From a virus: a DNA stretch of 64,000 bases. The translations under genes and the position numbers were made by a program. Shown here piece after piece: positions 6,095 through 45,484 of the stretch (the first letter of the stretch is position 1; each line of letters opens with the position of its first letter). The stretch covers positions 1-64,000 of the IMG/VR virus record IMGVR_UViG_3300045988_146036; one strand, written 5' to 3'. The notes under the pieces were generated by a model that saw nothing but the letters and a program-made list of their open reading frames with translations, made no database searches and was not told the DNA's origin.

Positions 6095-6111
6095 TTTCTA
6101 AACATTGTCAA
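6083..6111 (-). promoter_or_regulatory. sigma-A type promoter TTGACA-N17-TACTAT
   Basis: Minus strand reads TTGACAatgtttagaaaatgtggTACTAT, then GGAGG and ATG. Confidence 0.55.
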
Positions 6112-6191
6112 GCACTATTTTTAAATTTATAGGTATTTATACCTACATTCACTTTTGAACGCATACAAGCCAAATCTGCGTGCCTGGGATA

Positions 6192-6222
6192 TATAAATAA
6201 AGAGTGCTCCGTTAGGAGCACC
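6192..6222 (-). terminator. rho-independent terminator of the flotillin gene
   Basis: Hairpin gtgctcc-gtta-ggagcac followed by a T-run on the minus strand. Confidence 0.55.
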
Positions 6223-6230
6223 CTTGCTAA

Positions 6231-7676
6231 TTAAGACTTTTTAGCTGCATTTTTAACAGGAATTGCTCCTTTAATAGCAACATTCTTATTAACCTTTGCA
6301 TCAATGGTATTTGCGTCTGCAATAGCTTTCAAATCTACACCAGTAGCAGATTTCATGGTATCAAAAACTTGCGCCATAACAGTAGGGGTATTTCCTGCCA
6401 AAGTGCTAACATCACCATTGCCATACACTTTCATTTCCTTAATGTTGGAAAGCGGTGTTGCAATAGCCTTTGCAACTTCTGGGAGAACCTTAATAGCCAT
6501 TTCAGCCATAGCTGCCTTGCCATACTCTTTCATAGCCTCTGCTTTTTTCTGCAAAGCCTCTGCTTCTGCCAAGCCTTTTGCTTTAATAGCCTCTGCTTCT
6601 GCCAAACCTTTTAATCGAATAGCTTCTGCTTCCTTTTCAGCACTATATTTCAAAGCTTCTGCTTGTTTTTGCTGTTTAGCAAGTTCTGCCTCTGCATTTT
6701 GTTTAGTAACAAAAAGGTCTGCTTCTGCCTCTTTTTCACGGCGATACTTTTCAGCATCTGCTTGTCTGCGTACTGTTGCATCTAAGCTCTTTTCTTGTAC
6801 CTTTGCTTCCTGCTCTTGCAAAGCTACTTCTTTTTCACGCTGCGCAATTTCAGCTTCCACCATACGTGTTTTAAGAATCTTATCTTGTTCTGCTTCTTTA
6901 ATGTTGTAAGCTGCGTCTGCTTCTGCTTGCTTAATGTCTGCCTCTTGTTTAAGTTCAGACTTACGAATTGCAACTTCATTCTGTTTTTCTGCAATTTGTT
7001 TAGCACTGTTCATTTTTGCTTCATTAGCTCGTTTATCTGCTTCTGCTTGTGCAATTTGAACATCACGTTCAGCCTCTGCTTTAGCAATTTGAGCTTGCTT
7101 ACGAATTTGTGCGATATTGTCAATACCTAAATTGTTAATAGCATCACAATCATCTGTAATAGACTGAATATTGAAAGACAATACTTCAATACCAAGTTTT
7201 CCCAAATCTTCAACAGCACTGGACTGTACTTTATCAGCAAGCTTTTGGCGGTCATTTACCATTGCTTTTAATTCCATAGAACCTGCAATATCACGCAAAG
7301 AACCTTCCAAAATTTGACGTGCAGTAACTTCGATTGCATCTTCATCACGATTTAAGAAGTTGACACATGCAAGTTTAATGCTTTCAGTATCATTCTTAAT
7401 CTTTACAGTAGCAAAAGCATCCAAGTTGACGTTGATATAATCAGTTGTTGGTACAGAATCTGATGTATTAACATCAACATTTACCAAACCAAGATTAATA
7501 TAGTCAAGACGCTCCAAGAAGGGAATTTTAAAACCTGCTTTACCAATATAGATACGTGGCTCTTTAGAGAAGCCGCTTACAATACCTGCCATATCAGTAG
7601 GGATTTTAAAGTATCCCTTAGTAAAAATAATCATAAGTGCAAATAAGATAATAATTCCTGTAATAATAAGTACCAA
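6231..7676 (-). CDS. flotillin / SPFH (band-7) family membrane protein
   Basis: N-terminal TM helix, SPFH-like core (PFLERLDYINLGLVNVDVN...), and a long Ala/Glu/Lys coiled-coil with AEAEA repeats typical of flotillins; TTG start. Confidence 0.7.
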   Translation of the reverse strand: MVLIITGIIILFALMIIFTKGYFKIPTDMAGIVSGFSKEPRIYIGKAGFKIPFLERLDYINLGLVNVDVNTSDSVPTTDYINVNLDAFATVKIKNDTESIKLACVNFLNRDEDAIEVTARQILEGSLRDIAGSMELKAMVNDRQKLADKVQSSAVEDLGKLGIEVLSFNIQSITDDCDAINNLGIDNIAQIRKQAQIAKAEAERDVQIAQAEADKRANEAKMNSAKQIAEKQNEVAIRKSELKQEADIKQAEADAAYNIKEAEQDKILKTRMVEAEIAQREKEVALQEQEAKVQEKSLDATVRRQADAEKYRREKEAEADLFVTKQNAEAELAKQQKQAEALKYSAEKEAEAIRLKGLAEAEAIKAKGLAEAEALQKKAEAMKEYGKAAMAEMAIKVLPEVAKAIATPLSNIKEMKVYGNGDVSTLAGNTPTVMAQVFDTMKSATGVDLKAIADANTIDAKVNKNVAIKGAIPVKNAAKKS

Positions 7677-7761
7677 TTTAAATTCTCCTTTATTTTAAAA
7701 ATGTTTGTAGATTATAAGAGTTTTTAAATCGGCGGTGAACGAATTAACATAAAGACACCTC

Positions 7762-8187
7762 TTATTCCTTAATTTCATCCTCCATAAACCACTCAAATGT
7801 TAAATTGTACTCTGTCATAAGTAATGCACGTGCAATAGTATCAATAGGCTGGTGCATTACCGCTTCATAGACGCAGGCTTCGATACTTCTATCCATATTT
7901 TCCACAGCCATAATAGTACAGTGAAGTAATTCGTGAATTAAAACAAGTTCTTCACAATGTTTAAAAACAAGGTCTACATCTGTACAATGCGAGATTGTAA
8001 TTATGGCTGTTTTAGTTGAATGAGTAACATTATTAATGCCGTCACAAGTATCGTTACCCTCTTTAATAGCCTCATCTACAAGTTTTGTTTTAATCAGCCA
8101 ATCATTTAGCTGCAAAATTCCTTGCCATTTCCGAGTAGCTTGTTGCAACTCTTTCTCATCTTTAAAACACATAATTGGTTGCTTCAT
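7762..8187 (-). CDS. HExxH-motif protein, possible ImmA/IrrE-like metallopeptidase
   Basis: Motif LIHELLHCT (HExxH); 141 aa. Confidence 0.3.
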   Translation of the reverse strand: MKQPIMCFKDEKELQQATRKWQGILQLNDWLIKTKLVDEAIKEGNDTCDGINNVTHSTKTAIITISHCTDVDLVFKHCEELVLIHELLHCTIMAVENMDRSIEACVYEAVMHQPIDTIARALLMTEYNLTFEWFMEDEIKE

Positions 8188-8769: not shown

Positions 8770-9852
8770 TTATTCTTCTTTTAGCAAAAAAGTTGGGGAA
8801 ATCGCTTTAAAGGAAATTCCCTGCTCATAATTTCTGCAAACAATACCTTCACGCTCTTGTGTATCAAGTAATACACTTTTACCACTCGCAAGATTGTTTA
8901 AGGTCTGTAAATCACTTGGCACATTGATACGCTTATAAACTACTGGCACTGTTTTAATGCGAAATTCTTTAAGAAGCTCTTCCATTTTTACTTGTGAAAC
9001 TTTAATGCCGTCAAGAATTAAATTATAAGCATAAAAATCATACCCACTAATCTTATATTTATTAGCTTGGATATTTTGCCCAATAATCTCACCTTGTAAA
9101 ACAACTTTTCTAAAGCCAAAGCAATCTTGAATCTCCTTTAAAGCCTCCTCAATCTGAAAGCGTCTTGCAATTTCCCAATAGGGCGAATTATCTTCCTTAC
9201 GTAGCCAAATATTTCTACTGCAAACCCCAAAAGTGCCGCCGTCTAAAAAGAAAGTTGAACTGCAGCCGTCGATTTTCTCTGTACAAGTTAGCGGAACACT
9301 ATCAGAACGCCATTGTTCAAGCTTATCAGTAATATTTTGCCAGCGTTCTTCATCAGTCTTGCTTGCAATGTAAGTAGGGAACTTTTCATTCTGTACATGG
9401 AATTTTGCATATAAGCGTCTAAACCAACGGAAACGCATTAAAGGCTTCCATAAGAATGTGAATCTTCCTTTTGGGGCAGCAACTGCCATGATTTTATTCT
9501 CTGCTTCAAGTTGCGGGTCAAATTTCGTAATATTCAATACTTTAGTTACATCTTCACCAACAGCGTATTCTTTATTTGGCAAGTAACTTAAAGGCAGAAT
9601 CAAACCTTGTGAAATCTGTTTGCGCAATTTAATAGTCTTAATGCGGTACTTTCTGTCTTTAAGGAACGCAAATTCTGGTCTTGCAGGGAGTACAGAATCT
9701 ACTTCAATATACACTACTTTATCGCCTTGCTGAAAGTTGTCACTCTTACTTACAACACATTCCCAACCTTTTACAGTTGCTTTTAAAATTCTATCTGCAT
9801 TTGGAATAGGCTCTAATTTATCTATAATTTCTACACTTGCTAATTTTCTCAT
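8770..9852 (-). CDS. ATP-dependent RNA/DNA ligase, Rnl5/DraRnl-like (N-terminal OB domain plus nucleotidyltransferase)
   Basis: N-terminus MRKLASVEIIDKLEPIPNADRI (OB-like as in NgrRnl/DraRnl); motif I TEKIDGCS (KxDG); motif IV EGIV; motif V FKAISPTFLLK. Confidence 0.55.
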   Translation of the reverse strand: MRKLASVEIIDKLEPIPNADRILKATVKGWECVVSKSDNFQQGDKVVYIEVDSVLPARPEFAFLKDRKYRIKTIKLRKQISQGLILPLSYLPNKEYAVGEDVTKVLNITKFDPQLEAENKIMAVAAPKGRFTFLWKPLMRFRWFRRLYAKFHVQNEKFPTYIASKTDEERWQNITDKLEQWRSDSVPLTCTEKIDGCSSTFFLDGGTFGVCSRNIWLRKEDNSPYWEIARRFQIEEALKEIQDCFGFRKVVLQGEIIGQNIQANKYKISGYDFYAYNLILDGIKVSQVKMEELLKEFRIKTVPVVYKRINVPSDLQTLNNLASGKSVLLDTQEREGIVCRNYEQGISFKAISPTFLLKEE

Positions 9853-11741
9853 TTAACTACCTCCGCTTCTACTGTTTTTTCATCGTCTGTATCTTCCATA
9901 AAAATTCGTTCTAAAATGCCACCAGATTGGGGATTCGCACCATGAACAACAGTTTGCTCAATACTTCCACCTTTAATTTTTGTTTGTGAAACCATAACTG
10001 GTCGTCCTTTTACTTCGTCTTGCAAATCTTTTAACTTAGTTAAATACCCAAAAGCATCCTGCATTGCCTGTGAAGTAGCCTTTGTAGGTGTTCCACCCAT
10101 AGCTGTTTCAAGCATAAAGGCTTTTTGAGCACGTTCTATTGCTAAATCAGCAATAGCCGTCATTCCCTGTATAACATCTTCTTGTTCCCTGGTATTAAAT
10201 CTACGGAACATTTTATCATATGCACAAATATACCCTGCTTGGTACTCTGTACAGTTTGCTGCCATTACGCATCTATCACAAGAAAGTCTAGGTAAAGCTC
10301 TTGTGGAAAGCTTTTTCTGTCGCTTAACCTTTTTGATACCTTTTAAGATATTGCCATTTTTATCATAAATTGGTTTAATACCTTGTTCTATTAAAGCTTT
10401 TTCAACATCATCTTTATCATATCCAGAAGTTAATAATGCAGGTAGAAGTTCTCCACACTCTTCCCTACTCATTTCAACCTCTAAATACTCTTTTTCTGTA
10501 ATATAGTCCTCACGTTCAAGTGCTATACGCTGCCCCTCTTCTGGATTCTGCAAATTTGACAACTCGTTTCGCATACCGTCAACGTGTTCTTTGAAAGCTT
10601 CTTGCAAAAACTTTATACACTTATCTTTTGTATTATAGTTTGCACCTGTTGCACCAAACATTGCACATAAACCTACAAGGTCGTCAAGCTCATAGTTCTT
10701 GGCTTCTTTAGGCTCGTTTAGAAAAATATAAGCATCATGTAAAATTGTTTCACCCGCTGTTTGAGGAATGTTTGTATCAATTCCTGCTAGTTCTAAGCGT
10801 TCCTGCCAATCTTGCATATCCCCTTCAAACCATGCTGCATCTGGAATAGAGTATCTAGTGTTTGAACGTGCTTCCCAATATTTTTGTGGTCGCATAACAT
10901 TTTTAACGTATTCTTCAAACTTCTTATAGCTAATGGCGTTTGCTTTTATAAGCTCATAAGGAGATTCTATTTCAAGCAACTTCTCCTTTAACCCCAACGC
11001 CTTTAGCTTTTCCATGTATTCCGTTTTCCATTGCTGCTTTTCAAGGTGTTTCATTTGCCCTGCTTCAAAGTAGGTAATTGTACCAAATTGCGCACCTGTC
11101 AAATAAGTAGTAGAATCTGCGGAAAAGAATGGATAGCTCAATAATAGTTTATTGCCTGTAATTGCAAAACCATGAATAGCAGACTTATACCTTTTAGCTA
11201 TTTGGAATAATTGTGAAATGAGATTTTCCCTTTCCCCCATATCCTCAATAGTATGCTTTATCTCCATGTACGAAAATCCAACATATGGATGCTGTTTACA
11301 AAGCTTTTCAAAATGCGATAAATCTTTATCTAAATGATAAAGATAAATAACATTTATTCCTTCTCTTTCTAATGGATAGAAATACTTTTCACGCCAACCT
11401 TCTACAATATCCTCGCCAACAATACTATCAATATCAAGTTCCACGCAGGCAAAGATATAGTCACGATACTCACGTACAAAGTTAACATACTTTACTAAAT
11501 AATCTTCCCACCATTCAATGGTCTTATTATTAAACTCTTTATCATTAAAAAAAATATAAGCACCACTATCAATTAAGACTTTCATTCCTCTATGGGACTT
11601 TAAGCGTTTTACAATTTCATCTAATCCACGTTTACGAATATACTTATAGGAAAGTAGCACATTCTTTGTTACAGAAGATGCTACTTCCCAGTTTTCTTTA
11701 GGCTCAACGCCTGATAATAAAAGCGTAAAATCACCTTTCAT
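9849..11741 (-). CDS. tRNA-guanine transglycosylase superfamily protein, DpdA-like (candidate 7-deazaguanine DNA transglycosylase) with C-terminal extension
   Basis: VLIDSGAY matches the TGT substrate-Asp motif (L/I)(T/I)DSGG(Y/F); Cys cluster SCDRCVMAANC as a candidate Zn site; adjacent to queC. 630 aa is much larger than typical DpdA. Confidence 0.45.
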   Translation of the reverse strand: MKGDFTLLLSGVEPKENWEVASSVTKNVLLSYKYIRKRGLDEIVKRLKSHRGMKVLIDSGAYIFFNDKEFNNKTIEWWEDYLVKYVNFVREYRDYIFACVELDIDSIVGEDIVEGWREKYFYPLEREGINVIYLYHLDKDLSHFEKLCKQHPYVGFSYMEIKHTIEDMGERENLISQLFQIAKRYKSAIHGFAITGNKLLLSYPFFSADSTTYLTGAQFGTITYFEAGQMKHLEKQQWKTEYMEKLKALGLKEKLLEIESPYELIKANAISYKKFEEYVKNVMRPQKYWEARSNTRYSIPDAAWFEGDMQDWQERLELAGIDTNIPQTAGETILHDAYIFLNEPKEAKNYELDDLVGLCAMFGATGANYNTKDKCIKFLQEAFKEHVDGMRNELSNLQNPEEGQRIALEREDYITEKEYLEVEMSREECGELLPALLTSGYDKDDVEKALIEQGIKPIYDKNGNILKGIKKVKRQKKLSTRALPRLSCDRCVMAANCTEYQAGYICAYDKMFRRFNTREQEDVIQGMTAIADLAIERAQKAFMLETAMGGTPTKATSQAMQDAFGYLTKLKDLQDEVKGRPVMVSQTKIKGGSIEQTVVHGANPQSGGILERIFMEDTDDEKTVEAEVVK

Positions 11742-11743
11742 TT

Positions 11744-11968
11744 TTAATTACGCCCCCAAGGTGTGATTCCTTTTCTATTTTTAGTTTTCCAAGAAGTTCT
11801 ATTCATAAATCTATAATATGGATTCGTTTGTAAATTATTTGTGTCGCCTGTTCTTCCCTGCTTAACACTTAAAAATCCACCTTTAGTCTTTTCAACACTT
11901 CTTGCTGCAATTTTAATCTGCGGAACAGAATTTTTCTTCTCCGAATTAGATTTATTTGCCAATCTCAT
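11744..11968 (-). CDS. small basic protein (74 aa)
   Basis: Lys/Arg-rich ORF between queC and the DpdA-like gene. Confidence 0.3.
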   Translation of the reverse strand: MRLANKSNSEKKNSVPQIKIAARSVEKTKGGFLSVKQGRTGDTNNLQTNPYYRFMNRTSWKTKNRKGITPWGRN

Positions 11969-12548
11969 TCCCCTCCTTCAAAAAATAACTAGGGTACCTA
12001 TGTGCTACACGCCATTTACAATTCTCACAAACACCACAAGGCTCGCCATTATCAGAAAAGTTACATGAAAAAGTATCCTCTAATTTTACACCAAGCCTGC
12101 ATCCAATCTTGAAAACATCATCTTTTGTAAGGTCTATGAAGGGTGCTAAAACTTTAACATTTGGAAATTCAATACTTAAAAATGAATTAAGAGCATCTAA
12201 CCATTTATGTGTACAGTCTGGGTATCTAGGAAAATTCTTAATAATTCCTAAATAAATATTTAAAGACTCTCCAACATAAAGCTTTGCAATAATATCCATT
12301 ACAAATAGAGTGTTTCTGTTTGGGATGTAATCTTCACCTAATAAATGTAAGTTAAAGTGTGCTAAATAATCTACATCATTATTAAACTTTTGTGAAAGAC
12401 ATTTAAACTCGTTTAAATTATATGTGCCACCTTCAACTTTAGTATAAAGCGCATGATAAACCTTTAAATCTAAATGCTCATCTTTTTTCAGATAATCATA
12501 AAGTACGGTACTATCATACCCACCACTCATACATATAATATTAGTCAT
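11952..12548 (-). CDS. queC: 7-cyano-7-deazaguanine synthase QueC
   Basis: N-terminal PP-loop ICMSGGYDST (SGGxDS) and C-terminal zinc motif CGVCENCKWR, both QueC hallmarks. Confidence 0.7.
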   Translation of the reverse strand: MTNIICMSGGYDSTVLYDYLKKDEHLDLKVYHALYTKVEGGTYNLNEFKCLSQKFNNDVDYLAHFNLHLLGEDYIPNRNTLFVMDIIAKLYVGESLNIYLGIIKNFPRYPDCTHKWLDALNSFLSIEFPNVKVLAPFIDLTKDDVFKIGCRLGVKLEDTFSCNFSDNGEPCGVCENCKWRVAHRYPSYFLKEGNEIGK

Positions 12549-12549
12549 T

Positions 12550-12861
12550 TTATTCCTCTTTTATAATATAATATCTAAGACTTAATTCTAAGCTTTTCTT
12601 TAGAAGAAATGTATTACTGCCAAAGATAATGACTGAAATATCCCCAAAAAGCATATCTAAGTCTTTAAAATCGTCTTTAGTACACTGTACTAAATGTATA
12701 TCATTCTTACCTGCCCAATCCTTTAAAAATGGTTCTAAAATGGAGGGAATACCCCCCACGATAACGCAAGTTCCTTTAGAACCATTAAAATGAAAAGATA
12801 AAACATCTAGCACATGATAACTTGTTCCTTTAAAATTTTCAAAACTCGCGATGACGTACAT
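12550..12861 (-). CDS. hypothetical Rossmann-like protein (possible SLOG / nucleoside deoxyribosyltransferase-like)
   Basis: Likely start MYVIASF (12861); motif TCVIVGGIPS; weak family assignment. Confidence 0.3.
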   Translation of the reverse strand: MYVIASFENFKGTSYHVLDVLSFHFNGSKGTCVIVGGIPSILEPFLKDWAGKNDIHLVQCTKDDFKDLDMLFGDISVIIFGSNTFLLKKSLELSLRYYIIKEE

Positions 12862-13252
12862 TTTTATCCCTATCCTCACAAATCGGTACAACTGCTTTAT
12901 CATCAATATACACATCTGCATGGATTTTTCTTGCACGTCTTGAACCTTCCCACGATTTAAGTTCCTCTGGAAAACATTGCTTTACTTGTGGCAAATCATC
13001 ATTTACTGCATCAAAGATTAAGCCTCTATAAAGACACCAACGTAGTGCCTCTTGTAAAAACTTACCTTCCCTGCAAGTCCACAAAATAAGCTTATGCCCC
13101 CTACGTTGCAATTCCTTGCAAAATTCCGTGGCAGGAATAAACTTTCCAACTTCTGTCTTATCGAGCATAAGTGTAGAAAACTTTCGCTCTTCCCCAATGT
13201 AAGGATATTGACTATTAACCAATGTACCGTCAAAATCTATTGCATAAATCAT
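12839..13252 (-). CDS. HAD-superfamily phosphatase (probable 5'-deoxynucleotidase)
   Basis: Motif I IDFDGTL (DxDGT) immediately after the probable start MIYAIDFDGTL; downstream KIHADVYIDDK as a candidate motif IV. Confidence 0.5.
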   Translation of the reverse strand: MIYAIDFDGTLVNSQYPYIGEERKFSTLMLDKTEVGKFIPATEFCKELQRRGHKLILWTCREGKFLQEALRWCLYRGLIFDAVNDDLPQVKQCFPEELKSWEGSRRARKIHADVYIDDKAVVPICEDRDKNVRHREF

Positions 13253-13566
13253 TCTGTACACTCCACTGTACGGATACCATGCGCCCATGTATCTACAATT
13301 TCTTTAATACTATCATAGGTAATACCACCTAGGATTGTTAAAGCTGTAGAACATTCATCCTGCGCAACAGGGCATAATTTTTTATCATCCCAAGAATTAA
13401 AATGATAAAGATAGTAATAGTGCTCTTTCTCACCACCAAAAAACTCTAAAACATAAATTGGTTTACCACAAACGGGACATTTAAAATAACCAATAACTTC
13501 TTGCTCTCCCCAAGGAAACAAGATGTTCTCTTTTTCAAGATGTATAAATTCCATTGAATTACTCAT
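13249..13566 (-). CDS. hypothetical Cys-containing protein (105 aa)
   Basis: CPVCGKP motif; no QueD signature (CxxxHGH absent). Confidence 0.35.
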   Translation of the reverse strand: MSNSMEFIHLEKENILFPWGEQEVIGYFKCPVCGKPIYVLEFFGGEKEHYYYLYHFNSWDDKKLCPVAQDECSTALTILGGITYDSIKEIVDTWAHGIRTVECTE

Positions 13567-14186
13567 TGCGCAGTACCCCCTGTGATTAAATAGCTCATAG
13601 GCAACTTAGTTACACATTTGCAGAACCTCTGCCATTCTCTAGACTTGTGATGCTGTCTTTGTGCATACATCGTTTTAAGCTGCAAATAGTTTGTTGTCAT
13701 TCTTGCGGTTAAATGCAAGCCCATAGGAACATTACACATCATGGTGTCAAAATCAATCTTGCCCTCAGTGTAATCTTGAATTGCTCCAACTAAATTAAGC
13801 TTTGCTGTTTCAGTAACAGTAGTATCACACATTTTATCAATATCCATTTTTGTAAGGCAATGTACTTTACTCATTGAGCTTACGAAATCAAACCAGTGAT
13901 AACGCTGTGCCTGCTGCCACCAATATTGAGGTGCATTAACATCCATTTGCACAATAATCCCCTTTAAAAAGTTATTATGCCCAGTTCCTGCAGCCGTACT
14001 ACCAAGCTTTAAAGCTCTTCTAACATGCGCACCTGCTTCTACAGTTCCACGCATAAAAATGTCTGCTGCTACATCAGATACTCCACTTTCAAATTCTTTT
14101 TCGGTAGGAGGCTTTGAAAGCATTGGATAGCCGCTTGCATAAATAGACTCTTCCAATCCATAAAGTTTAACATTAGTAATTAGCAC
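13563..14186 (-). CDS. ThyX-like (flavin-dependent thymidylate synthase family) protein with a divergent active-site motif
   Basis: GHNNFLKGIIVQMDVNAPQYWWQQAQRYHW aligns to ThyX [29 protein letters not shown], but the RHR motif is replaced by RYHW; GTG start. Confidence 0.4.
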   Translation of the reverse strand: MLITNVKLYGLEESIYASGYPMLSKPPTEKEFESGVSDVAADIFMRGTVEAGAHVRRALKLGSTAAGTGHNNFLKGIIVQMDVNAPQYWWQQAQRYHWFDFVSSMSKVHCLTKMDIDKMCDTTVTETAKLNLVGAIQDYTEGKIDFDTMMCNVPMGLHLTARMTTNYLQLKTMYAQRQHHKSREWQRFCKCVTKLPMSYLITGGTAQ

Positions 14187-14308
14187 TTTTTAGAACCCCC
14201 GATAAATGCTTTCTGAAATTGTCTTAAATTAAAAGCTTGAAAAATAGCAGGCAATTCTCTCTTTTTAGGTTTAGTGTTCCAATTTTTAGTGTGTAATCTT
14301 TTTTGCAT
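14180..14308 (-). CDS. small ORF (42 aa, basic), translationally coupled
   Basis: GGAGA RBS, ATG at 14308-14306 placed directly after the upstream stop; its stop overlaps the GTG start of the ThyX-like gene. Confidence 0.3.
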   Translation of the reverse strand: MQKRLHTKNWNTKPKKRELPAIFQAFNLRQFQKAFIGGSKKC

Positions 14309-14310
14309 TT

Positions 14311-14709
14311 TTAAATCTCCTTTTTAAATAAATCATTAAGCACTCTAGGAACGTAGACACGCTCGCTTTGTGTTTTAACCAACGCTTTTTTCATGTTATT
14401 AGTTGTTTTGCCTAAATTTACCTTTAAATTATGTGAGCCAGAAAGAAATTCTGCCAAAGGCTGTGTAACATCTAGGAAGTCTTTATCCTCTCGTCTTTTT
14501 TTGCTAATATCACGCATTAATTGACAAATTTTAGTGCGCGTACTGCGCTCCGTAGGATAGTTCAACTCACAAAAATGTCGAATATCCCCCAAAGCGCAAT
14601 CATTCTCATGTACAGCATCATATCGGATTCTACGCTCCGCTTCAATGGCTACAATTAGGTCTTTAAAATCTTCTACAATTTTTACTACGTTTTCTTTAGT
14701 GTATTCCAT
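14311..14709 (-). CDS. hypothetical protein (132 aa)
   Basis: ORF with AAGGAGG RBS downstream of the promoter at 14731-14759. Confidence 0.4.
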   Translation of the reverse strand: MEYTKENVVKIVEDFKDLIVAIEAERRIRYDAVHENDCALGDIRHFCELNYPTERSTRTKICQLMRDISKKRREDKDFLDVTQPLAEFLSGSHNLKVNLGKTTNNMKKALVKTQSERVYVPRVLNDLFKKEI

Positions 14710-14730
14710 AGCTTACCTCCTTATGTGTAT

Positions 14731-14759
14731 ATTATAGCACACCTTAAAGGTATTGTCAA
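14731..14759 (-). promoter_or_regulatory. sigma-A type promoter TTGACA-N17-TATAAT
   Basis: Minus strand reads TTGACAatacctttaaggtgtgcTATAAT. Confidence 0.6.
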
Positions 14760-14766
14760 CACTTTT

Positions 14767-15351
14767 CTAAAGCAATTTATGTAACTTTAAACCTGCTCTT
14801 GCATTTAAACGGTTTTTGGTTAAGAAAGTTTCTATCCTTTTAAAAATGTTTAAATCGTTTTTAAAAGGATAAAGTGTAACCATAGCAGATGTTGGATACT
14901 TCTTTAAAACCTTCTTTACATAATCAAAGTCAGAATCATCTTTTATTACGAATTTAACTTCATCATTACTATGTAATAATCTTAAATTATTTAAGATATT
15001 TTCATTGGCACAGTTTATAATTACACTATAAGCATAAGTTCTGTCATATAAACAATCTTCTAAAGGGATTCTACAAGACGTTTCCATAGTTACAATATAT
15101 GAGTATGCTAACAACTCATATACAAGTGTATAACTATCTTCCTGCAAAAGCGTTTCACCTTTTATACAAACATGCCTGTTTCCTAATTTATTTACTTTTG
15201 AGAGAATTCTATCTATTGACCAATCTGTGCCTTTGGCTAAATCAATAGGCTCTTGTATAAAAGTCGTTGCATATCCTGTGTACCTGCCCTCCCCCTGTAA
15301 AGCCGAATAAATTTCACATACTTTCACTTCGCCCAAAACCTCCCCAGTCAA
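14767..15351 (-). CDS. QueE-like (7-carboxy-7-deazaguanine synthase family) protein lacking the radical-SAM Cys triad
   Basis: EIYSALQGEGRYTG matches QueE EIFxxxQGEG; KGETLLQ matches GGEPLLQ; C-terminus KFVIKDDSDFDYVKKVLKKYP matches B. subtilis QueE VVIFNDEDLEFAKTVHKRYP; but no CxxxCxxC follows the FIQ segment. Confidence 0.5.
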   Translation of the reverse strand: MTGEVLGEVKVCEIYSALQGEGRYTGYATTFIQEPIDLAKGTDWSIDRILSKVNKLGNRHVCIKGETLLQEDSYTLVYELLAYSYIVTMETSCRIPLEDCLYDRTYAYSVIINCANENILNNLRLLHSNDEVKFVIKDDSDFDYVKKVLKKYPTSAMVTLYPFKNDLNIFKRIETFLTKNRLNARAGLKLHKLL

Positions 15352-15712
15352 GCTTAACTATCCTACCGTTTTTAGTACCAAAGTTTTCCAAGGTGCTATC
15401 CTCCAATAAAAAAGCAAGCTCATCACCTGTAACTTTATTCTTAAAATAATCTCTTACTAGATTGGCGCAATCAACACTGCTTAAAGACTTAGCTAAGGGC
15501 TGCACCCTCTCCATTACATTGCACCAACCAAAAGGGAATGAAATATATAATTTAGCTAAATGCTTGCTTTTATTCCTGTATTCCCACTCCTTTAAGTTTT
15601 GCTTACGTCCGTGGTATGGAAAACGTAAGTATGGAAATTTAATAGCAAGATTTCCTATTAAAATTACATACCTTGAACCACCACGTACAGTAGTAAAAAA
15701 ATTATCGTACAT
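15314..15712 (-). CDS. hypothetical protein (132 aa)
   Basis: ORF with GGAGG RBS. Confidence 0.35.
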   Translation of the reverse strand: MYDNFFTTVRGGSRYVILIGNLAIKFPYLRFPYHGRKQNLKEWEYRNKSKHLAKLYISFPFGWCNVMERVQPLAKSLSSVDCANLVRDYFKNKVTGDELAFLLEDSTLENFGTKNGRIVKLDWGGFGRSESM

Positions 15713-15755
15713 CTGACTCCTCCTAATAAAAATAGCCCCTATATAGGGGCTATAA

Positions 15756-16037
15756 TCAATTCAAACTTATAAAAAGTTTGATAACTGTTCTTTCTTCACC
15801 CTCTATAAAAGCGGTATCGAACCCTGGCCTTACAACCAAATCCCTACCATTAGAGGCTAAAAATCCACGAGCAACTGCAACTGCTTTAACTGCTTGACTT
15901 ACTGCTGATGCACCACAGCAATTAAGTACAACATTTGCTGCTACGGTTTCTCCGTCACCCTTTACAGTGTGTGCAATACTTCCTGCAAGCTTTTTAACAT
16001 TGCTAGTGCTGCTTACTCTGAAAATTACTTCCTTCAT
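15756..16037 (-). CDS. spoVS: stage V sporulation protein S (SpoVS) homologue
   Basis: 93 aa; AVSQAVKAVAVARGFLASNGRDLVVRPGF...EGEERTVIKL closely matches the SpoVS consensus NQAVKAVAIARGF...GEERTAIKL. Confidence 0.7.
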   Translation of the reverse strand: MKEVIFRVSSTSNVKKLAGSIAHTVKGDGETVAANVVLNCCGASAVSQAVKAVAVARGFLASNGRDLVVRPGFDTAFIEGEERTVIKLFISLN

Positions 16038-17664: not shown

Positions 17665-17932
17665 TTAAAGCACCTGCTGTAACAAATGTCCATAATACCC
17701 AAAAAACAACATTAGCAAAACCCGTGAAGAAAGAAGCTCCCCAAGCCCCAATATATATCAAACTTACAATAAAGACTAATGCACCCAATACTGTGGTCAA
17801 AACAATAATAAGAACTGCAAAAACATCTAGTAACTTTTCAATCATAATTAGCACACACCTTTCTATAATGACAACCATTGCACATAAACGTCTTTTCTGC
17901 TGCTGGGACTTTTCGCTCCCTAACAGCGTCAT
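17624..17932 (-). CDS. small integral membrane protein (102 aa)
   Basis: Two or three predicted TM helices. Confidence 0.35.
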   Translation of the reverse strand: MTLLGSEKSQQQKRRLCAMVVIIERCVLIMIEKLLDVFAVLIIVLTTVLGALVFIVSLIYIGAWGASFFTGFANVVFWVLWTFVTAGALNGISTFISKRVSN

Positions 17933-18731
17933 TTATAGCTGAGAACTTTTTAAGAGCTTTAGTAGTAGCTGCCTTATCTGTATAAGCAAACTCTTTCAAC
18001 TCTTGTGTATCCTTATTCTCATAAAGAAATATAACTTTTTTTACAGGTTTTGGGTATTTTTCTAAAAAATCAAGAGTGTTCTTAAAATCTTTAAACCTGC
18101 TATTTACCTTATCCTTTTTAAAATGCACTTTTCCGTCTAAAGAGGTAGTATCTTCCAAAAAAGAATCTAGTTTGTATAAATACTCTTGTTCTAACTCTTT
18201 GCGCTTTCCTAATAAGATTAAATTACGCATAGTATTTAAACAATACATGTAGATACTTGCTTGCATCTTGTGTTCTGGCTTTGCATCTTTAAGGCCTGCA
18301 AATCCCATAGAATTAATACTCTTAATTTCGAGCACTGCAATAGACCTATCTTTATCTAAAAGCAAGCCATCTGTTGTTCCCATAATTTGATAAGCTTTAT
18401 CATATAAAGGGGCTTCATCTGCTAAAAGAACACCACTTTGCAGAAGATAATTCTGTAAACGAATATGTGTATAAGTACCATTATCAAAGATTCGCTGTAA
18501 ACGTGGTTCGTTACTAGGAAAATCTGGTGGTAAACCTATACGACCAAAGTAGACACTTCTACTACAATAACCAACACTACTAGGACTGTTCCAACCATGC
18601 CCCCTATCAACACCTGCTTTTAAATTACGCAAAGTTTCTTCAATAGCAGGGATAAGTAACTTGTCCGCTGTATCATTGGAAATTTTATTAATATTTTTTA
18701 AGCTTCCTTTTATCTTCATCTGTACCTCCAT
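17838..18731 (-). CDS. Cas4-like / RecB-family PD-(D/E)xK exonuclease with C-terminal Cys cluster
   Basis: DKDRSIAVLEIKS (D..ExK) and C-terminal FMCNGCHYRKVC Cys cluster typical of Cas4-like Fe-S nucleases. Confidence 0.5.
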   Translation of the reverse strand: MEVQMKIKGSLKNINKISNDTADKLLIPAIEETLRNLKAGVDRGHGWNSPSSVGYCSRSVYFGRIGLPPDFPSNEPRLQRIFDNGTYTHIRLQNYLLQSGVLLADEAPLYDKAYQIMGTTDGLLLDKDRSIAVLEIKSINSMGFAGLKDAKPEHKMQASIYMYCLNTMRNLILLGKRKELEQEYLYKLDSFLEDTTSLDGKVHFKKDKVNSRFKDFKNTLDFLEKYPKPVKKVIFLYENKDTQELKEFAYTDKAATTKALKKFSAINDAVRERKVPAAEKTFMCNGCHYRKVCANYD

Positions 18732-37609: not shown

Positions 37610-38833
37610 TTACATTCCACCTTCCATTCTCCAAAACTCATCAGCACATTCCTGCACCGCGCTAAAAAACTCCCTTATATAATCGCATTGTACAAATTCT
37701 TCTTTGTTTTCTTTCTTATAGGCTATTGGACAAATTGACCTGCATAAAGGTAGACATTCACATTCTGCGCAATTTCGTGGCAATAACTTTAACCACTCCA
37801 TTTCATGTGCTTTTAATATATCTGAATAATCATCTTTAATATTTGCAACCACTTTATTATCATTGTGGCATCTTATTATATTACCTGCAAAATCTATAGA
37901 TAAAGAGATACGTCCAGGTGCGCAAGGTGGAAATGGGGAAAGCATAAAACTTTCTTTAGAGAAGTAAGTCCCTCTTCTAAGTTTAGTTTCAAACCACCTA
38001 TGTACATTTGAATCCCTTGTTTCTTTATAATATTCAAATAAATCTTTTACTGCTTTTCTTACTTCGCCCTTCTCAAAAGCGTATAAATCTTTTGGTATAT
38101 CCCATAGTACATTTATAAAACCTAGAGTTACCTCAGTATTGGGGAATTTTGACTCCAAGTATTTAAAAGCAGTTACCATATCACAATTTAAGGCATTGTA
38201 TACCCCATTTACCGTTCTTTTTTCTGCCAACAAAAAAGCTTCTATATTTCTCTCTAGCGGCATGGCGTTTCTTGCAGCTAGAGGGTTGGGTGCATCATAA
38301 CTCATAATTACCCATATATTATGTTTGTTACAAAAGTCTACAATGGAATTTGAAAGTAATAGACCATTGGTGAAAATGCGATAAGAAATATTTCTCATAC
38401 CCATTTTTTCAAACTCTTCTATAAGTTTCTTTATTGTAGTCCAATAAAGTAAAGGTTCACCACCCCAAAAATAGAGCCTACCTCCACCTGCTTTATCCCA
38501 TTTTACTATAAAGTCTAGTACATCCTTGCTTAACTCAGTAGTGGGAAAAGCAACATCACATTTAATAGGAGTTTGTGTACAATGTCTGCAAGACATATTA
38601 CATGCACTGCCTAGCATCAGATAAAGTGCTTTTACACCTTCCGTGGATACCGAATCCCCTTCACAGTGAATAACATCCCCATTAACAAATTTGTCACCCT
38701 CTTGAATGTCGACCCCTGTAATATCCACATAATCTCCATCCCCAACTAAATCTTTAAACTCTTTTAATGTATTATTTGTTATAAATTTTGCCACCAATAC
38801 ATCATCTATTAATTTTCCAATTTGTAATACCAT
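37610..38833 (-). CDS. radical SAM / SPASM-domain maturase
   Basis: CNMSCRHC (CxxxCxxC) near the N-terminal third; C-terminal SPASM-type cluster NCAECECLPLCRSICP. Confidence 0.6.
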   Translation of the reverse strand: MVLQIGKLIDDVLVAKFITNNTLKEFKDLVGDGDYVDITGVDIQEGDKFVNGDVIHCEGDSVSTEGVKALYLMLGSACNMSCRHCTQTPIKCDVAFPTTELSKDVLDFIVKWDKAGGGRLYFWGGEPLLYWTTIKKLIEEFEKMGMRNISYRIFTNGLLLSNSIVDFCNKHNIWVIMSYDAPNPLAARNAMPLERNIEAFLLAEKRTVNGVYNALNCDMVTAFKYLESKFPNTEVTLGFINVLWDIPKDLYAFEKGEVRKAVKDLFEYYKETRDSNVHRWFETKLRRGTYFSKESFMLSPFPPCAPGRISLSIDFAGNIIRCHNDNKVVANIKDDYSDILKAHEMEWLKLLPRNCAECECLPLCRSICPIAYKKENKEEFVQCDYIREFFSAVQECADEFWRMEGGM

Positions 38834-39303
38834 AATGCTACCGCTCCTGCACTTCCCGCTAAACCAATACCGCCACCTGCACCTGCGCTTCCAACAGTGA
38901 TTTGTATCCTATCCCCTTCCTTAACAGGAATGGTGACAATATTAATGCCACCACTACCTCCTGATACAGGGTAGACAACTTTGTCCGTGTTTGAACAGCC
39001 TCCACCACTACCATAAACACCTTTAGTAACTTCGGGACGAACATCGTATCCTTTAGTACCTGCCACTGAATAATCACCGTCTACACCTTCTGGAACGCCA
39101 CCTTTACCAACTTGCTTTTCCTCAGTTTCGGTGTAGCTTCGCCTATTAGCATATGTACAAACTCTTTTATACTTTGCACCACCGCCCCCAGATGCAATGA
39201 TTACATCTGCTCCATTTAAAGAAACTTTAGAAGTTCCACCATCTGTTCCTTTAGCGTCTGCAATAACTTGTGTATGGGGGTATTGAATCCATCTTGTACT
39301 CAT
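38809..39303 (-). CDS. glycine-rich tail-fibre-associated protein (164 aa)
   Basis: SGGGGA, GSGGGC, VGSAGAGGGIG; paralogous segment VTIPVKEGDRIQITVGSAGAGGG; ATGA overlap with the upstream gene. Confidence 0.45.
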   Translation of the reverse strand: MSTRWIQYPHTQVIADAKGTDGGTSKVSLNGADVIIASGGGGAKYKRVCTYANRRSYTETEEKQVGKGGVPEGVDGDYSVAGTKGYDVRPEVTKGVYGSGGGCSNTDKVVYPVSGGSGGINIVTIPVKEGDRIQITVGSAGAGGGIGLAGSAGAVALWYYKLEN

Positions 39304-40106
39304 GCTCCTTCACCTCCGCTACCTTCTCCTTGGCTCGGGCCGCTATCATCGGTATCTTCTTTAGGAGTGTATCCATATCCTGCACCACCGCCGCCGCCAC
39401 CAACAGTCACGATGGTAATGTTTTCCACACCTTTAGGAACTGTGAAATCATAAGTACCTGGACTTGAATATTGGACAAATTGCTGTCCAGACATTAACAA
39501 ATCATTGTTCCAAGCATAACAAACAGTTAAATGGCTATCTTTACTAGAGCCTTGCCCCAAAAGCCAAAGCTCCATTCGATGCGTTCCTGCGTCTAATTCA
39601 ATGTCCCCATCATATAAAGTTTTCCAATTAATGCCTGCACTGCGCCTGAAAGTTTTCTTAACAAGCAAGTTTCCATCTAAATTTATCCATATATCACTAC
39701 GTTGCCACTTATCAGAGCTGTATCCCCAACCAGTTTGTCCATAATTAACCATACTTTTATAATGAAACTTGGTTCTTCTTGGTGCTACAAAATAAAAAGT
39801 ATCATATTTAGCTGTGCGCTCACCACTACCACCAAATTCTATCTTTACAGTCTTATCAAAATTTACGCCTTGGATGCCTTGCACACTTTGCTCAACCACT
39901 CTATAAGACATTCCGTCAATTTCTACCCAAAGTTGTGTTCCATACAAATCATCTGTAACACCTAGAGGTGCATACACAGTTGAACCATTTGCTAATTTAA
40001 TTGGTAAAGACCTTCCTGTATAGCTACAAGTAGGTGTATCATATAAAGGAACTATTTTTTTATTATTACTGCTTTGTATGTTTAAAACATGCTCTGTTAC
40101 ACCCAT
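39300..40106 (-). CDS. glycine-rich tail fibre protein (268 aa)
   Basis: C-terminus FTVPKGVENITIVTVGGGGGGAGYGY, paralogous to the 164-aa protein. Confidence 0.45.
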   Translation of the reverse strand: MGVTEHVLNIQSSNNKKIVPLYDTPTCSYTGRSLPIKLANGSTVYAPLGVTDDLYGTQLWVEIDGMSYRVVEQSVQGIQGVNFDKTVKIEFGGSGERTAKYDTFYFVAPRRTKFHYKSMVNYGQTGWGYSSDKWQRSDIWINLDGNLLVKKTFRRSAGINWKTLYDGDIELDAGTHRMELWLLGQGSSKDSHLTVCYAWNNDLLMSGQQFVQYSSPGTYDFTVPKGVENITIVTVGGGGGGAGYGYTPKEDTDDSGPSQGEGSGGEGA

Positions 40107-40107
40107 A

Positions 40108-40713
40108 TTATTTCACCCACATTTTCGTACCATTAGGAAATACTATTTGCCCGCTTTCATTAAAACGTGCTAAATTACTTGGCAAAATGGTATCTGGGAT
40201 AAGTGCTTTATCATTCAATATAGGTATCTCTTCCCTACCATAACCTATATTTAAAATACCATTAGGTATTTTACCATCTGCGTTCACCATCACAATCTGC
40301 CCTGCCTTAACCCCAGTATCAATAAGGCTTGTTGCTATCTTATCATTATCCCCTGTCATTACCAGTTGCCCATTCTGTGTCCCTGTATACATTAGGCTCA
40401 TCTTAATCTTATTTGTGGCAACATCTATTATATCGTCCACCCTACTAAGAGGAATATGAAATGTATCCACATACTCCTTATTAACAAGTGTTAATGTTAA
40501 GTCTGCTATCCTTATCCATAAATTATACTCCACATTAGATAAGATATAAAGACTCATTGTATCTGTTCTAAAACAAGGCTGCCCCAAAACTAAATTATCT
40601 TGGGGAAAACTTGTACCACTATGCTGTGACTGCACACTTTCAAAATTCTTATTTATAGGTTCTAAAGAATTTGCAAGTGTTTCAGTTTCTTTTATTTTTC
40701 TTAATTTCTGCAT
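40108..40713 (-). CDS. tail/baseplate-associated protein (201 aa)
   Basis: Position within the tail module. Confidence 0.35.
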   Translation of the reverse strand: MQKLRKIKETETLANSLEPINKNFESVQSQHSGTSFPQDNLVLGQPCFRTDTMSLYILSNVEYNLWIRIADLTLTLVNKEYVDTFHIPLSRVDDIIDVATNKIKMSLMYTGTQNGQLVMTGDNDKIATSLIDTGVKAGQIVMVNADGKIPNGILNIGYGREEIPILNDKALIPDTILPSNLARFNESGQIVFPNGTKMWVK

Positions 40714-40722
40714 TATTTCACC

Positions 40723-41637
40723 TCAATATCCGCGGGCTGCATAAGTTATTGTCCCCTCAACATAGCCGCCATCCTCATTTTTCATTACTACCATAAACCC
40801 TTTTGTAGTAACATCATATGCTAATACTAACGGCGGAGCACCTGTGCCACTATAAGACTTAATAGTAACATTCAATTCTGGTACAATGTGGAACTTCCTA
40901 TCACTATTAAAGTGCATTTCATGGGGTTGATTGGTAGTTGTAAGCACTACTGTACCTGTATCTACCACATCTGGTACATCTACTTTATGTATATACACCC
41001 TTGCATTAGGCCTAGCTGCATTAAGACTAGCTTGCATTACATATTTACATAATGCTTTTTGATATATATAATCGCCTGTAATCATTTTCTTCCACTTACT
41101 ATAACCAAAAGGCGTAAATGTTTCATCAAAATTCGTTTCGTTTAAAACCTTGTCATAGAAGCGTAAATCACTTAATACCTGTTGTGAATTATTTATTTTT
41201 AACACACCAATTCCAAGTGCCTCTTTAAAGGGTTTTGTAACTTTCTTATTAGGAGCTTCTTGTAACCCCAATGCTGTGCTAAATTTTCTGAAATAAGCAT
41301 TTACGGTTGTATAATCAGATGTAAAACCTAAACCTGCCTTAAAAGTTCTGTAAAAATCATTTTTAGTAACTGGGTCTACTTTAATCCCCAAAGTAGCACT
41401 AAATGCTTTGCTTGACTTTTTATTTATCTGTTGTTGTATTCCTAGACCTATATGATAGGAACGCTTATAATTACACTTGCTTGTAGCCTCTAAATTGAAA
41501 CTTAGTGTAGCTTTCCAGTCTGCAATGTAAACTGTTCCTCGCAAATCTTTTAAGCGTTTTCCTTTAAAATAGCTGAAAGGAAATGGGGCTTCTTTTAGTT
41601 TTAAGCCTCGAATTTCCTCTCTAACCGTAAAACTCAT
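40723..41637 (-). CDS. structural protein with about five tandem 25-aa xFxxxLGI repeats
   Basis: FSATLGIKV / FKAGLGFTS / FSTALGLQE / FKEALGIGV periodic repeats. Confidence 0.4.
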   Translation of the reverse strand: MSFTVREEIRGLKLKEAPFPFSYFKGKRLKDLRGTVYIADWKATLSFNLEATSKCNYKRSYHIGLGIQQQINKKSSKAFSATLGIKVDPVTKNDFYRTFKAGLGFTSDYTTVNAYFRKFSTALGLQEAPNKKVTKPFKEALGIGVLKINNSQQVLSDLRFYDKVLNETNFDETFTPFGYSKWKKMITGDYIYQKALCKYVMQASLNAARPNARVYIHKVDVPDVVDTGTVVLTTTNQPHEMHFNSDRKFHIVPELNVTIKSYSGTGAPPLVLAYDVTTKGFMVVMKNEDGGYVEGTITYAARGY

Positions 41638-42080
41638 ACTACTGATACTTCTTTCAAAATAATTTCAAAAGTCATTGCATAAGTATCTACAGCTTCTTTA
41701 TTAATTACTGGATATACAACTCTATCAAATAAAATATCATCCCCTGTAAAAATACCTGCTTCCACCAAAGCACCTGTTGCTTCTCCAGCACCAAAAACTG
41801 TCTGGAATACGAGAGAAGTAGTTCCCGCTGTATGAGTGTAGGTACAAGCCTTTTTAAGTTTAAGTGCTTTCAAGTTTGTATCTCCTAGAGCTGGGGCAGT
41901 ATTATTAGTTCCTACACCAATTTGACTAATAGGCTTTGGTCTTGTTGTTGAACCTAAGCAATTACTTACAAAGTCAAAACCTGCACTTGTAATCAAATTA
42001 TGTTTCACAAACTTTTGTTTAATGTTATTATTCTCGTCATACAGTACCCCTGTAACAACAACTGTCATTTCTGTATTCAT
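41634..42080 (-). CDS. tail-associated protein (148 aa)
   Basis: Position after the gpJ-like gene. Confidence 0.35.
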   Translation of the reverse strand: MNTEMTVVVTGVLYDENNNIKQKFVKHNLITSAGFDFVSNCLGSTTRPKPISQIGVGTNNTAPALGDTNLKALKLKKACTYTHTAGTTSLVFQTVFGAGEATGALVEAGIFTGDDILFDRVVYPVINKEAVDTYAMTFEIILKEVSVV

Positions 42081-42091
42081 TTAATCCTCTC

Positions 42092-45000: not shown

Positions 45001-45106
45001 CCTTTTTATTAGACAATTTCTTCTGCTGTCTAAGGCTTACAAACATACTAACAAGGGCAATACCAATACCTATCCAACCCCATGTTGCTGCTGAAATGTG
45101 TGACAC
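42092..45106 (-). CDS. central tail fibre / host specificity protein (gpJ-like, 1004 aa)
   Basis: Size and position after the gpM/L/K-like genes; N-terminal hydrophobic segment. Confidence 0.5.
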   Translation of the reverse strand: MSHISAATWGWIGIGIALVSMFVSLRQQKKLSNKKASYTYGEGALTTNVSTTDPVPIIYGTVKTAGNMIYSRLSNDKKVLYKLVSVADGKIKGIRDLQFDDLDANSSSYEGVSYNYYYGDGVQEIDSRVIGDTQKDKAMLVGGLKYLAYIALQAKANENLSSSFNVTCLVDGSIVKIYENANDLTQYREEWTDNPAWCVLDFMTRYNGCGMSLDEIDVQSFIDGAKFFKEKNYTLNLALDEQRSRLEWIQYMLNCCRSLLIYRAGKYSLFVEKADEVVQSYTPNDIHDLSIWFSPLSEVPDIYRITYIDPKNEWVKVNAEASLSPDSYLRKQPMVETLELMGVTTFDQASRLAWFYLNQALTCQTYISFKTDRRALNRTVGDVIEVTDYVTEFQKKKFRIIKIEDEQNESIKLTCREYNESIYSEQRGASDPVINITELTDPQQTPPEIVYVGNEQEYYILPDKTVVSNIMLDVIYTDWTYNKSFNVSYRKKDSDKWLFGGTFDDGTYRAVIENMEIYETYIFRFQNMSKYGKFSAYTYSPEIYITGKNAAPTMPSNFHGEEVTGGFKLYWDEGEKDVDYYLLYLGSVSEEDKIAQVYGTSYYYPANVGEYTFYLVAVDTAGNRSTPARLLLEILCPSDVNGFDCVQNERNIEFHWNLVEGAAYYVLKEGENWEYGNTLATSSGHFFSYPYAQATSTTFWMKAYTAYGVPSTNPAYCQLSVASIPNRNMILEYDAVADEWSGKKYNMHVNAGGIQLDAGKVYGDYIYPMELDQEYCARNWTEKTIKPVNAELELMWKDAHFTWASENAKRRTWFPLGIDDMYNSWTEIAVYNESSKEDVIERMSLNETLVSDNGKKPIGIVGTPTYGVGRFEKGLVLDGKCRPKWKNLPIDDAFSFSFNLYVPFDSVNNYSILTLRNDLGDYLWLHYREDDDMFVCTFSDGREYELKDFSGKGDYLHFIISQGSGYFTFVIYDVGCDSYVINRKKISVMKRYTQVALYGDFNRE

Positions 45107-45471: not shown

Positions 45472-45484
45472 CCTGCCCCTCCTT

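Follow-up and report, generated by a model that had tools for sequence, protein, structure and literature searches.

Introduction

The physiological role of bacterial flotillins is debated, with membrane fluidity, scaffolding of protein complexes, and protease control all under discussion. The flotillins of Bacillus subtilis have been reported to interact functionally with the membrane protease FtsH, and the related HflK/C assembly controls the action of FtsH on the CII protein of lambda. In phages, SPFH proteins are already known by annotation (PHROG_200), and a few phage proteins are already labeled flotillin; according to one phage paper, the reason for an SPFH gene in a phage genome "remains unclear" (PMC13239085). 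No work on the function of a phage-encoded flotillin turned up in the literature searched; a paper on phage Perkons was set aside, as it concerns integration into the host floA gene. Here, we describe a flotillin-family gene on the minus strand of a 64,000-nt stretch of phage DNA (positions 1 to 64,000 of IMG/VR virus record IMGVR_UViG_3300045988_146036; hereafter, the window).

What is new here is a well-supported flotillin in a less usual setting, accompanied by evidence of conservation across a phage clade, of purifying selection, and of prevalence, as well as by a candidate knockout and a recurrent linkage to RNA ligase genes. The overall best explanation, and one that we consider probable, is that the gene encodes a genuine flotillin of the phage that acts as an accessory host-membrane factor.

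Results

The gene encodes a full-length flotillin-type SPFH protein

Several lines of evidence identify the product as a flotillin. First, profile searches with hidden Markov models (HMMs) placed both the SPFH domain (PF01145) and the flotillin C-terminal domain (PF15975) above their curated Pfam cut-offs, the former by a wide margin (Table 1), and the NCBIfam FloT model NF058507 aligned over positions 7-473 of its 477 with 284.4 bits. Second, among all PDB sequences, the best relatives were human flotillin-1 and flotillin-2 (E 1.6e-55 to 1.6e-49, aligned over amino acids [aa] 27-470), far ahead of QmcA (6e-11) and stomatin (~1e-4). Third, in an AlphaFold2 monomer model built on 29 homologs, residues 2-21 form a helix and residues 22-175 fold into an alpha/beta domain with a predicted local distance difference test (pLDDT) score of 80-90, followed by two long helices at residues 179-289 and 301-410. 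In a Foldseek search of the PDB with this model, the flotillin complexes 9L3G and 9BQ2 came first (E ~1e-22, 31-32% identity), followed by stomatin, HflK/C, prohibitin, erlin, and vault SPFH assemblies; for isolated SPFH domains, the target-normalized template-modeling scores were 0.77-0.81. The matching PHROGs family was phrog_200, labeled "lipoprotein" (E 3.4e-12, profile positions 81-318 of 379, residues 2-230).

The regions outside the SPFH core also agree with this assignment. The sole hydropathy peak lies at residues 1-26, Kyte-Doolittle windows of 19 residues exceed 1.6 only at residues 1-8, and a hydrophobic N terminus is present in all aligned homologs; together with the modeled helix, this predicts an N-terminal membrane anchor. 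The segment of ~210 residues from aa 186 to 395 consists of 23% Ala, 17% Glu, 14% Lys, and 10% Gln, coincides with the two long helices, and aligns to the wall helices of the flotillin-1/2 chains in 9BQ2 and 9L3G. An initial annotation, made from the sequence alone, had proposed a phage-encoded flotillin with an N-terminal transmembrane helix, an SPFH core, and a long AEAEA/K-rich coiled coil; each of these elements was recovered here, the helix and the coiled coil by prediction. The profile search that could have contradicted the annotation, had it detected no SPFH domain, thus upheld it. Altogether, the product is a genuine SPFH protein of the flotillin type that has all the elements of the domain architecture known from its bacterial and eukaryotic counterparts.

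The same annotation had described a 481-aa protein with a TTG start and a terminator of its own, leaving the strand unstated; all three features stand, and the open reading frame (ORF) is on the minus strand. The TTG start follows an AGGAG ribosome-binding site and is supported by the conserved hydrophobic N terminus in the homolog alignment, and gene calling done independently on at least four other contigs among the 25 read yielded the identical 481-aa product. A promoter-like site precedes the gene and an intrinsic terminator-like hairpin with a T-run follows it, and by this pattern of signals the flotillin gene appears as a self-contained promoter-gene-terminator unit. An antisense ORF inside the gene (6304..6909, plus strand, 201 aa) was rejected as a gene: its low-complexity Ala/Ser/Phe/Cys-rich product is a read-through of the EA-repeat codons.

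The flotillin is retained in a widespread phage lineage

The flotillin is carried by a common, widespread ~100-kb gut phage lineage. At least 90 blocks of the public assembly collection contain the identical protein, and in 48 of these the longest carrying contig measured 50-200 kb; the contigs shown with the identical protein were 63-104 kb. The gene occupied the same place on the 25 contigs read, which come from several independent samples. Homologs with 56-91% identity were present on contigs of 93-107 kb. In the three related contigs of 94-105 kb in which we inspected synteny (L001, L004, and L029), the gene order was QueC, a DpdA-like protein (575-632 aa), RNA ligase, small ORFs, flotillin, a 130-aa ORF, and DUF7841. 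Between the window and L029, the flotillins share 91% identity, while most neighboring proteins share 57-89% and a few 92-93%. The Nei-Gojobori ratio of nonsynonymous to synonymous substitutions (dN/dS) against the 91%-identical homolog was 0.079, indicative of purifying selection. By these sequence comparisons, the flotillin has been retained long-term at the same genomic position in a phage family of ~93-107 kb and under purifying selection.

These data also bear on the idea that the window contains no functional phage gene at this position, either because host DNA was misassembled into a phage contig or because the gene is a decaying passenger. One related genome (L116, see below) has indeed lost the flotillin. 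However, the dN/dS of 0.08 and the identical protein across contigs effectively refute misassembly or a passenger gene; moreover, the gene has the same place in independent samples and relatives in related phages, its G+C content is 0.363 compared to ~0.35 in the rest of the window, and the ORF is intact and accompanied by a ribosome-binding site, a promoter-like site, and a terminator. We consider this idea scarcely credible.

A neighbor-joining tree of 34 flotillin representatives grouped the window sequence with nine representatives from phage contigs in a clade (98.5% bootstrap support) that was nested among Lachnospiraceae-type flotillins. A scan of 185,579 species-representative genomes gave nothing above 53% identity to the window flotillin; the best cellular matches, at 45-53% identity, were in Agathobacter, Butyrivibrio, Roseburia, Blautia, Acetatifactor, and other Clostridia. 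This pattern suggests a probable single capture of the gene, long ago, from a Lachnospiraceae-like host, followed by inheritance within the phage family.

The closeness to host flotillins raises the alternative that the phage protein acts as a dominant-negative subunit that co-assembles with the ~50% identical host flotillin and thereby disrupts or re-purposes host membrane microdomains. All oligomerization regions are conserved with the Lachnospiraceae flotillins, the alignment with which has 76 invariant columns, including EA-repeat and C-terminal motifs, and the eukaryotic flotillin-1 and flotillin-2 hetero-oligomerize (9BQ2). Against this, the phage clade has no obvious domain loss that would suggest a poison subunit, and we regard such a hijack as highly improbable.

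One of the bacterial loci is itself of note. In Agathobacter rectalis GCA_020554685.1 (contig JAJCHR010000001.1, 131151-142722; L031), the very common flotillin P0090 has a PARG-like protein, a ParM-like partition protein (phrog_691), a TnpB-type transposase, and an NlpC/P60 protein as neighbors, along with numerous same-strand ORFs of unknown function. A megablast search of this locus against phages matched only 100 bp. Judged from these flanks, a mobile element may carry even the A. rectalis gene, nominally a bacterial one.

A natural deletion variant suggests an accessory role

The genome L116 (IMGVR_UViG_3300045988_143506; 99,049 bp) has ~91-96% nucleotide identity to window positions 1-22000 but lacks 1,289 bp from within the flotillin gene; this clean deletion joins TTTGCACTTATG to GTGTAGGCTTG at L116 positions 15038..15039 with 2 nt of microhomology. 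L116 keeps a 16-codon flotillin stub, the promoter, the terminator, and both neighboring genes intact. The 17-mer spanning the junction had 2 exact matches in the viral collection and 34 in the metagenome collections, of which only L116 was phage-related by blastn and the rest were due to chance, a 17-mer being too short a query for the metagenome collection. Because this near-identical genome has a clean internal deletion, the flotillin is probably accessory rather than essential, and L116 would be a natural knockout if the deletion is real. The initial annotation had offered two possibilities for the function, namely, remodeling of the host membrane for replication or assembly and support of superinfection exclusion. 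With regard to the first, the variant makes it less likely that replication or assembly depends on the protein, and we infer that the flotillin is neither a structural nor a replication-essential protein.

L116 differs from the window at two further sites: an insertion of ~1.07 kb (L116 12486..13555) splits the RNA ligase gene, and one of ~385 bp (7477..7862) lies in the homolog of window ORF 13563..14186. Introns or homing-endonuclease elements probably account for both insertions. Related contigs contain HNH_3 genes and a Thy1 gene with an intein.

The phage is probably virulent, as the 185,579 genomes scanned contained no prophage copy above 53% identity and the scan of window proteins turned up no integrase. 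These two negative results also count, if weakly, against a flotillin expressed from a lysogen as a moron or superinfection-exclusion factor that, like many phage membrane proteins, blocks DNA entry of competing phages at the membrane. Such a role would fit a dispensable membrane protein encoded in a self-contained promoter-gene-terminator unit, and exclusion during lytic growth may still be compatible with the data. However, known exclusion proteins are small and fast-evolving, whereas the flotillin is a 481-aa scaffold under strong purifying selection, and we therefore rate exclusion as very unlikely.

Some flotillins in other large phages lie near RNA ligase genes

Only 10 of 50,697 phage records were matched by tblastn, and only 4 of the 10 matches covered at least 80% of the query. 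Two matched proteins, of Vibrio phage KIT04 and phage csAssE-Sib, are annotated as "flotillin family protein". Matches at 35-37% in Enterococcus and Listeria "phage" records were treated as uninformative; these records are unannotated fragments of 1.5-20 kb and possibly host DNA. In IMG/VR, 23 flotillin loci with 37-46% identity were present on contigs of 5-205 kb. In three of the inspected loci, the neighbors comprise PhoH, endolysin, topoisomerase II, RNA ligase, polynucleotide kinase, and phosphoesterase, which identifies the contigs as genuine large phages. These flotillins form a clade separate from that of the window; yet another phage-like context is that of the sister sequence P0013, whose neighbors include RusA, SSB, DUF3310, and a helix-turn-helix protein.

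An RNA ligase gene lies ~1-5 kb from the flotillin gene in four settings, i.e., the window family, two IMG/VR groups, and the T5-like Vibrio phage KIT04 (Table 1). In addition, a phosphoesterase gene is directly upstream of the flotillin gene in several IMG/VR loci, and in the locus L005 this place is taken by a polynucleotide kinase gene. The linkage to RNA ligase may stem from common placement in early accessory regions or from shared ancestry among Firmicute phages.

Alternatively, the linkage could point to counter-defence or membrane protection, in which the flotillin would stabilize or repair the membrane against host abortive-infection effectors with depolarizing or pore-forming activity, or against premature holin triggering, and so buy time for virion production. 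In the window, the gene is surrounded by others with likely roles in counter-defence and repair (QueC, DpdA-like phrog_887, RNA ligase, and metallophosphoesterases, with RtcB and a Mom-like gene in relatives); the flotillins of other large phages, including that of KIT04, are within 1-5 kb of an RNA ligase, polynucleotide kinase, or phosphoesterase; and apparent dispensability is typical of counter-defence genes. This is guilt by association, however, and as the Firmicute phage groups may owe their synteny to descent, the linkages are not independent. The flotillin matched 0 families of the PADLOC-DB v2 defence models at E <= 0.1, and no link to defence was found in the literature searched. 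We regard a counter-defence role as rather unlikely. A broader proposal is that large phages have repeatedly and independently maintained flotillins as an accessory module that is linked to RNA-repair genes and acts in counter-defence or membrane protection, with an SPFH cage made by the phage preserving membrane integrity in the infected cell or neutralizing abortive-infection effectors that target the membrane. This proposal is likewise doubtful; if true, phages would have an anti-defence mechanism of a new class, and a viral flotillin would have a defined function for the first time.

Neighboring genes include a HExxH protein but no NfeD-type partner

Among nine flanking ORFs, a search for NfeD or another relevant Pfam partner returned only DUF7841, three genes downstream; the ORF immediately downstream of the flotillin gene matched only phrog_24108, of unknown function. 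Around 76 bacterial flotillin homologs, we found no conserved neighbor by clustering (rather than by HMM). Directly upstream of the flotillin gene, ORF 7762..8187 (minus strand, 141 aa) contains a metalloprotease-like HELLH (HExxH) motif but has no significant match to a Pfam or PHROG family. Its homologs lie near the flotillin gene in L029 (~9089), in L004 (~15442), and in the unrelated phage-like contig L030 (~3499).

This neighbor and the Foldseek matches to HflK/C-FtsH cages (7WI3 and 9CZ2) are consistent with an HflK/C-like regulator, i.e., a phage flotillin that cages or recruits host FtsH or another membrane protease and thereby protects phage proteins or alters host proteolysis, and the functional interaction reported between B. 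subtilis flotillins and FtsH points in the same direction. By contrast, the HflK/C matches are far weaker than the flotillin matches, and the HExxH ORF, besides belonging to no significant family, lies at a variable distance from the flotillin gene and is kept in L116, where the flotillin is deleted. Protease regulation is, in our view, quite unlikely.

The gene lies in the putative early region of a tailed phage

The window derives from a tailed phage, and the genomic context of the flotillin gene is unambiguously phage: terminase, portal, head, tape measure, tail, and replication genes were all recognized by PHROGs (Table 1), in agreement with the initial annotation. A megablast search of window positions 1-25000 against the 50,697 phage records gave no match, and the phage thus has no close relative in that reference collection. 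A SpoVS-like gene points to a spore-forming Firmicute host. Nearly all sizeable ORFs are on the minus strand. Over the whole window, the coding strand has 16 strong sigma-70-like sites (at least 11 of 12 matches) and the opposite strand has 1; 7 of the 16 lie within positions 1-9000, a region of small ORFs that includes the flotillin gene, and perfect TTGACA-17-TATAAT sites with a TG extension are found at 8763 and 8419. This distribution suggests that positions 1-9000 may be an early or host-takeover region transcribed by the host polymerase.

Several other genes deserve mention. A probable 7-deazaguanine DNA-modification set spans 9849..16037 on the minus strand and comprises the DpdA-like protein, QueC, and homologs of the relatives' PTPS (QueD) and radical-SAM (QueE) ORFs. 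Within this span, window ORF 13563..14186 has no Pfam hit, whereas its homolog in relatives has a hit to Mom; RtcB also occurs in related phage contigs. Metallophosphoesterase proteins are encoded in the window as well. At 37610..38833 (minus strand), the late region contains the gene for a radical-SAM protein (407 aa; phrog_1802, PF04055) just downstream of the tail genes (39300..51341), which is an unusual position for such an enzyme. A Cas4-domain/PD-(D/E)XK exonuclease (phrog_1706, "CRISPR/Cas system associated") at 17838..18731 (minus strand) adjoins a Holliday-junction resolvase and the UvsX-like recombinase.

Table 1. Features of the flotillin gene, its product, and the surrounding phage genome (window coordinates unless another contig is named)
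Feature	Position	Strand	Details and basis
Flotillin-family gene	6231..7676	minus	481 aa, TTG start, TAA stop; ORF list
Ribosome-binding site AGGAG	7685..7689	minus	8 nt 5' of TTG; read from sequence
Promoter-like site TTCACC-17 nt-TATAAT	7711..7739	minus	10/12 matches; consensus scan, pattern match only
Intrinsic terminator-like hairpin and T-run	6200..6225	minus	11 pairs, 6 G-C; 5 nt past stop; consensus scan
N-terminal hydrophobic membrane anchor (predicted), aa 2-21	7614..7673	minus	Hydropathy and AlphaFold2 helix, pLDDT ~86-89
SPFH/Band_7 domain, aa 24-204	7065..7607	minus	PF01145, E 2.4e-26, 93.3 bits vs. cut-off 23.6
Long Ala/Glu/Lys-rich helical (coiled-coil) region, aa 179-410	6447..7142	minus	Composition and model helices
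Flotillin C-terminal domain match, aa 346-440	6357..6641	minus	PF15975, E 4e-9, 37.1 bits vs. cut-off 27
Segment missing from L116	6343..7631		Removes ~aa 16-445 of flotillin; blastn, tblastn, junction sequence
RNA ligase (phrog_968, or annotated "RNA ligase"), near flotillin	8770..9852		PHROG match
RNA ligase near flotillin, L005	L005 4545..5714
RNA ligase near flotillin, L011	L011 2608..3990
RNA ligase near flotillin, L153	L153 5286..5918
DpdA-like protein	9849-11741	minus	630 aa; phrog_887 "queuine tRNA-ribosyltransferase"; PHROG match
QueC	11952..12548	minus
SpoVS-like gene	15756..16037	minus
UvsX-like recombinase	19370-20440		PHROG match
DNA polymerase	21682-23442		PHROG match
Primase	24525-25499		PHROG match
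DnaB-like replicative helicase	25711-26967		PHROG match
DnaC-like loader	27520-28278		PHROG match
Helicase	29757-31244		PHROG match
J-like tail protein	42092-45106		PHROG match
Tape measure	46530-51341		PHROG match
Major head protein	55342-56358		PHROG match
Portal	57172-58767		PHROG match
Large terminase	58761-60389		PHROG match

Discussion

The evidence favors a genuine phage flotillin that would serve as an accessory host-membrane factor. Based on solved flotillin, HflK/C, QmcA, and stomatin assemblies, we suggest the following mechanism. After infection, host RNA polymerase would transcribe the flotillin gene, and the product would insert into the cytoplasmic membrane via its N-terminal helix and oligomerize via the coiled coil and the C-terminal region into a ring or cage. 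This cage would fence off a membrane patch and change membrane fluidity or the organization of membrane-protein complexes. In doing so, the phage protein could supplement, replace, or co-assemble with the host flotillin, with which it shares ~50% identity. Within this explanation, the flotillin could be an accessory host-takeover or fitness factor that keeps the membrane of the infected cell organized and intact until programmed lysis, a possibility that we hold with less than even confidence.

Several points weigh against this explanation. The score against the FloT model misses the equivalog cut-off (284 vs. 700 bits); the protein is therefore a flotillin-family member and not an ortholog-grade FloT. 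The AlphaFold2 monomer is only moderate, with a mean pLDDT of 70, a predicted template-modeling score of 0.39, and the C-terminal 90 residues poorly modeled. The deletion variant rests on one metagenome-assembled contig, in which an assembly error is possible. Oligomerization, membrane localization, and expression timing are all putative. Finally, the sequence data do not discriminate between membrane maintenance, counter-defence, protease regulation, and phage exclusion.

To the debate on what bacterial flotillins do, this case contributes a full-length flotillin under strong purifying selection, an apparent natural knockout, and parallel occurrences in unrelated large phages. If the phage flotillin protects or reorganizes the host membrane, it would provide a clean gain-of-function handle on flotillin cages in bacteria, and a membrane-level strategy would join the tools of phages for host takeover and counter-defence. 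If it only duplicates a host function, it would be one more auxiliary gene.

Compared to known SPFH systems, the window protein shares with FloT (YuaG) of B. subtilis and YqiK of Escherichia coli the length class and the domain order of anchor, SPFH domain, EA-rich coiled coil, and C-terminal domain; unlike these proteins, it is phage-encoded, falls below the equivalog cut-off, and has no adjoining NfeD-type partner of the kind found in the operons YuaF-FloT, YqiJ-YqiK, and QmcA-YbbJ. The flotillins of Lachnospiraceae (e.g., A. rectalis, Butyrivibrio, and Lacrimispora) are ~50% identical over the full length and are also encoded by stand-alone genes; however, the phage clade has GYFKIPTD rather than GYVKAPPD after the anchor and a shorter C-terminal tail.

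Human flotillin-1/flotillin-2 (9BQ2 and 9L3G), a 44-subunit membrane cage, is the template for the proposed cage mechanism. This cage is hetero-oligomeric and anchored via acylation and hairpins, whereas the window protein has a predicted N-terminal transmembrane helix. HflK/C-FtsH, QmcA-YbbJ, stomatin, and prohibitin (7WI3, 8Z5G, 9Z7U, and 8RRH) have the SPFH fold and a helical wall in common with it, but the similarity is far weaker (sequence E 6e-11 or worse) and the flotillin C-terminal domain is missing. Moreover, assemblies of the HflK/C and QmcA type have partners (FtsH and NfeD), none of which was found beside the window flotillin.

Among phage proteins, those of PHROG_200 have the SPFH half in common with the window flotillin, while the long coiled coil and the Flot domain are not part of that family. 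The proteins of Vibrio phage KIT04 (BBL19217.1) and phage csAssE-Sib (WOZ57345.1), from phages of 115-151 kb, are full-size and carry a flotillin label from their annotators, are 23-25% identical to the window flotillin over part of its length, and belong to phage lineages and hosts unrelated to those of the window; in KIT04, as in the window family, an RNA ligase gene lies close by, 1.4 kb from the flotillin gene.

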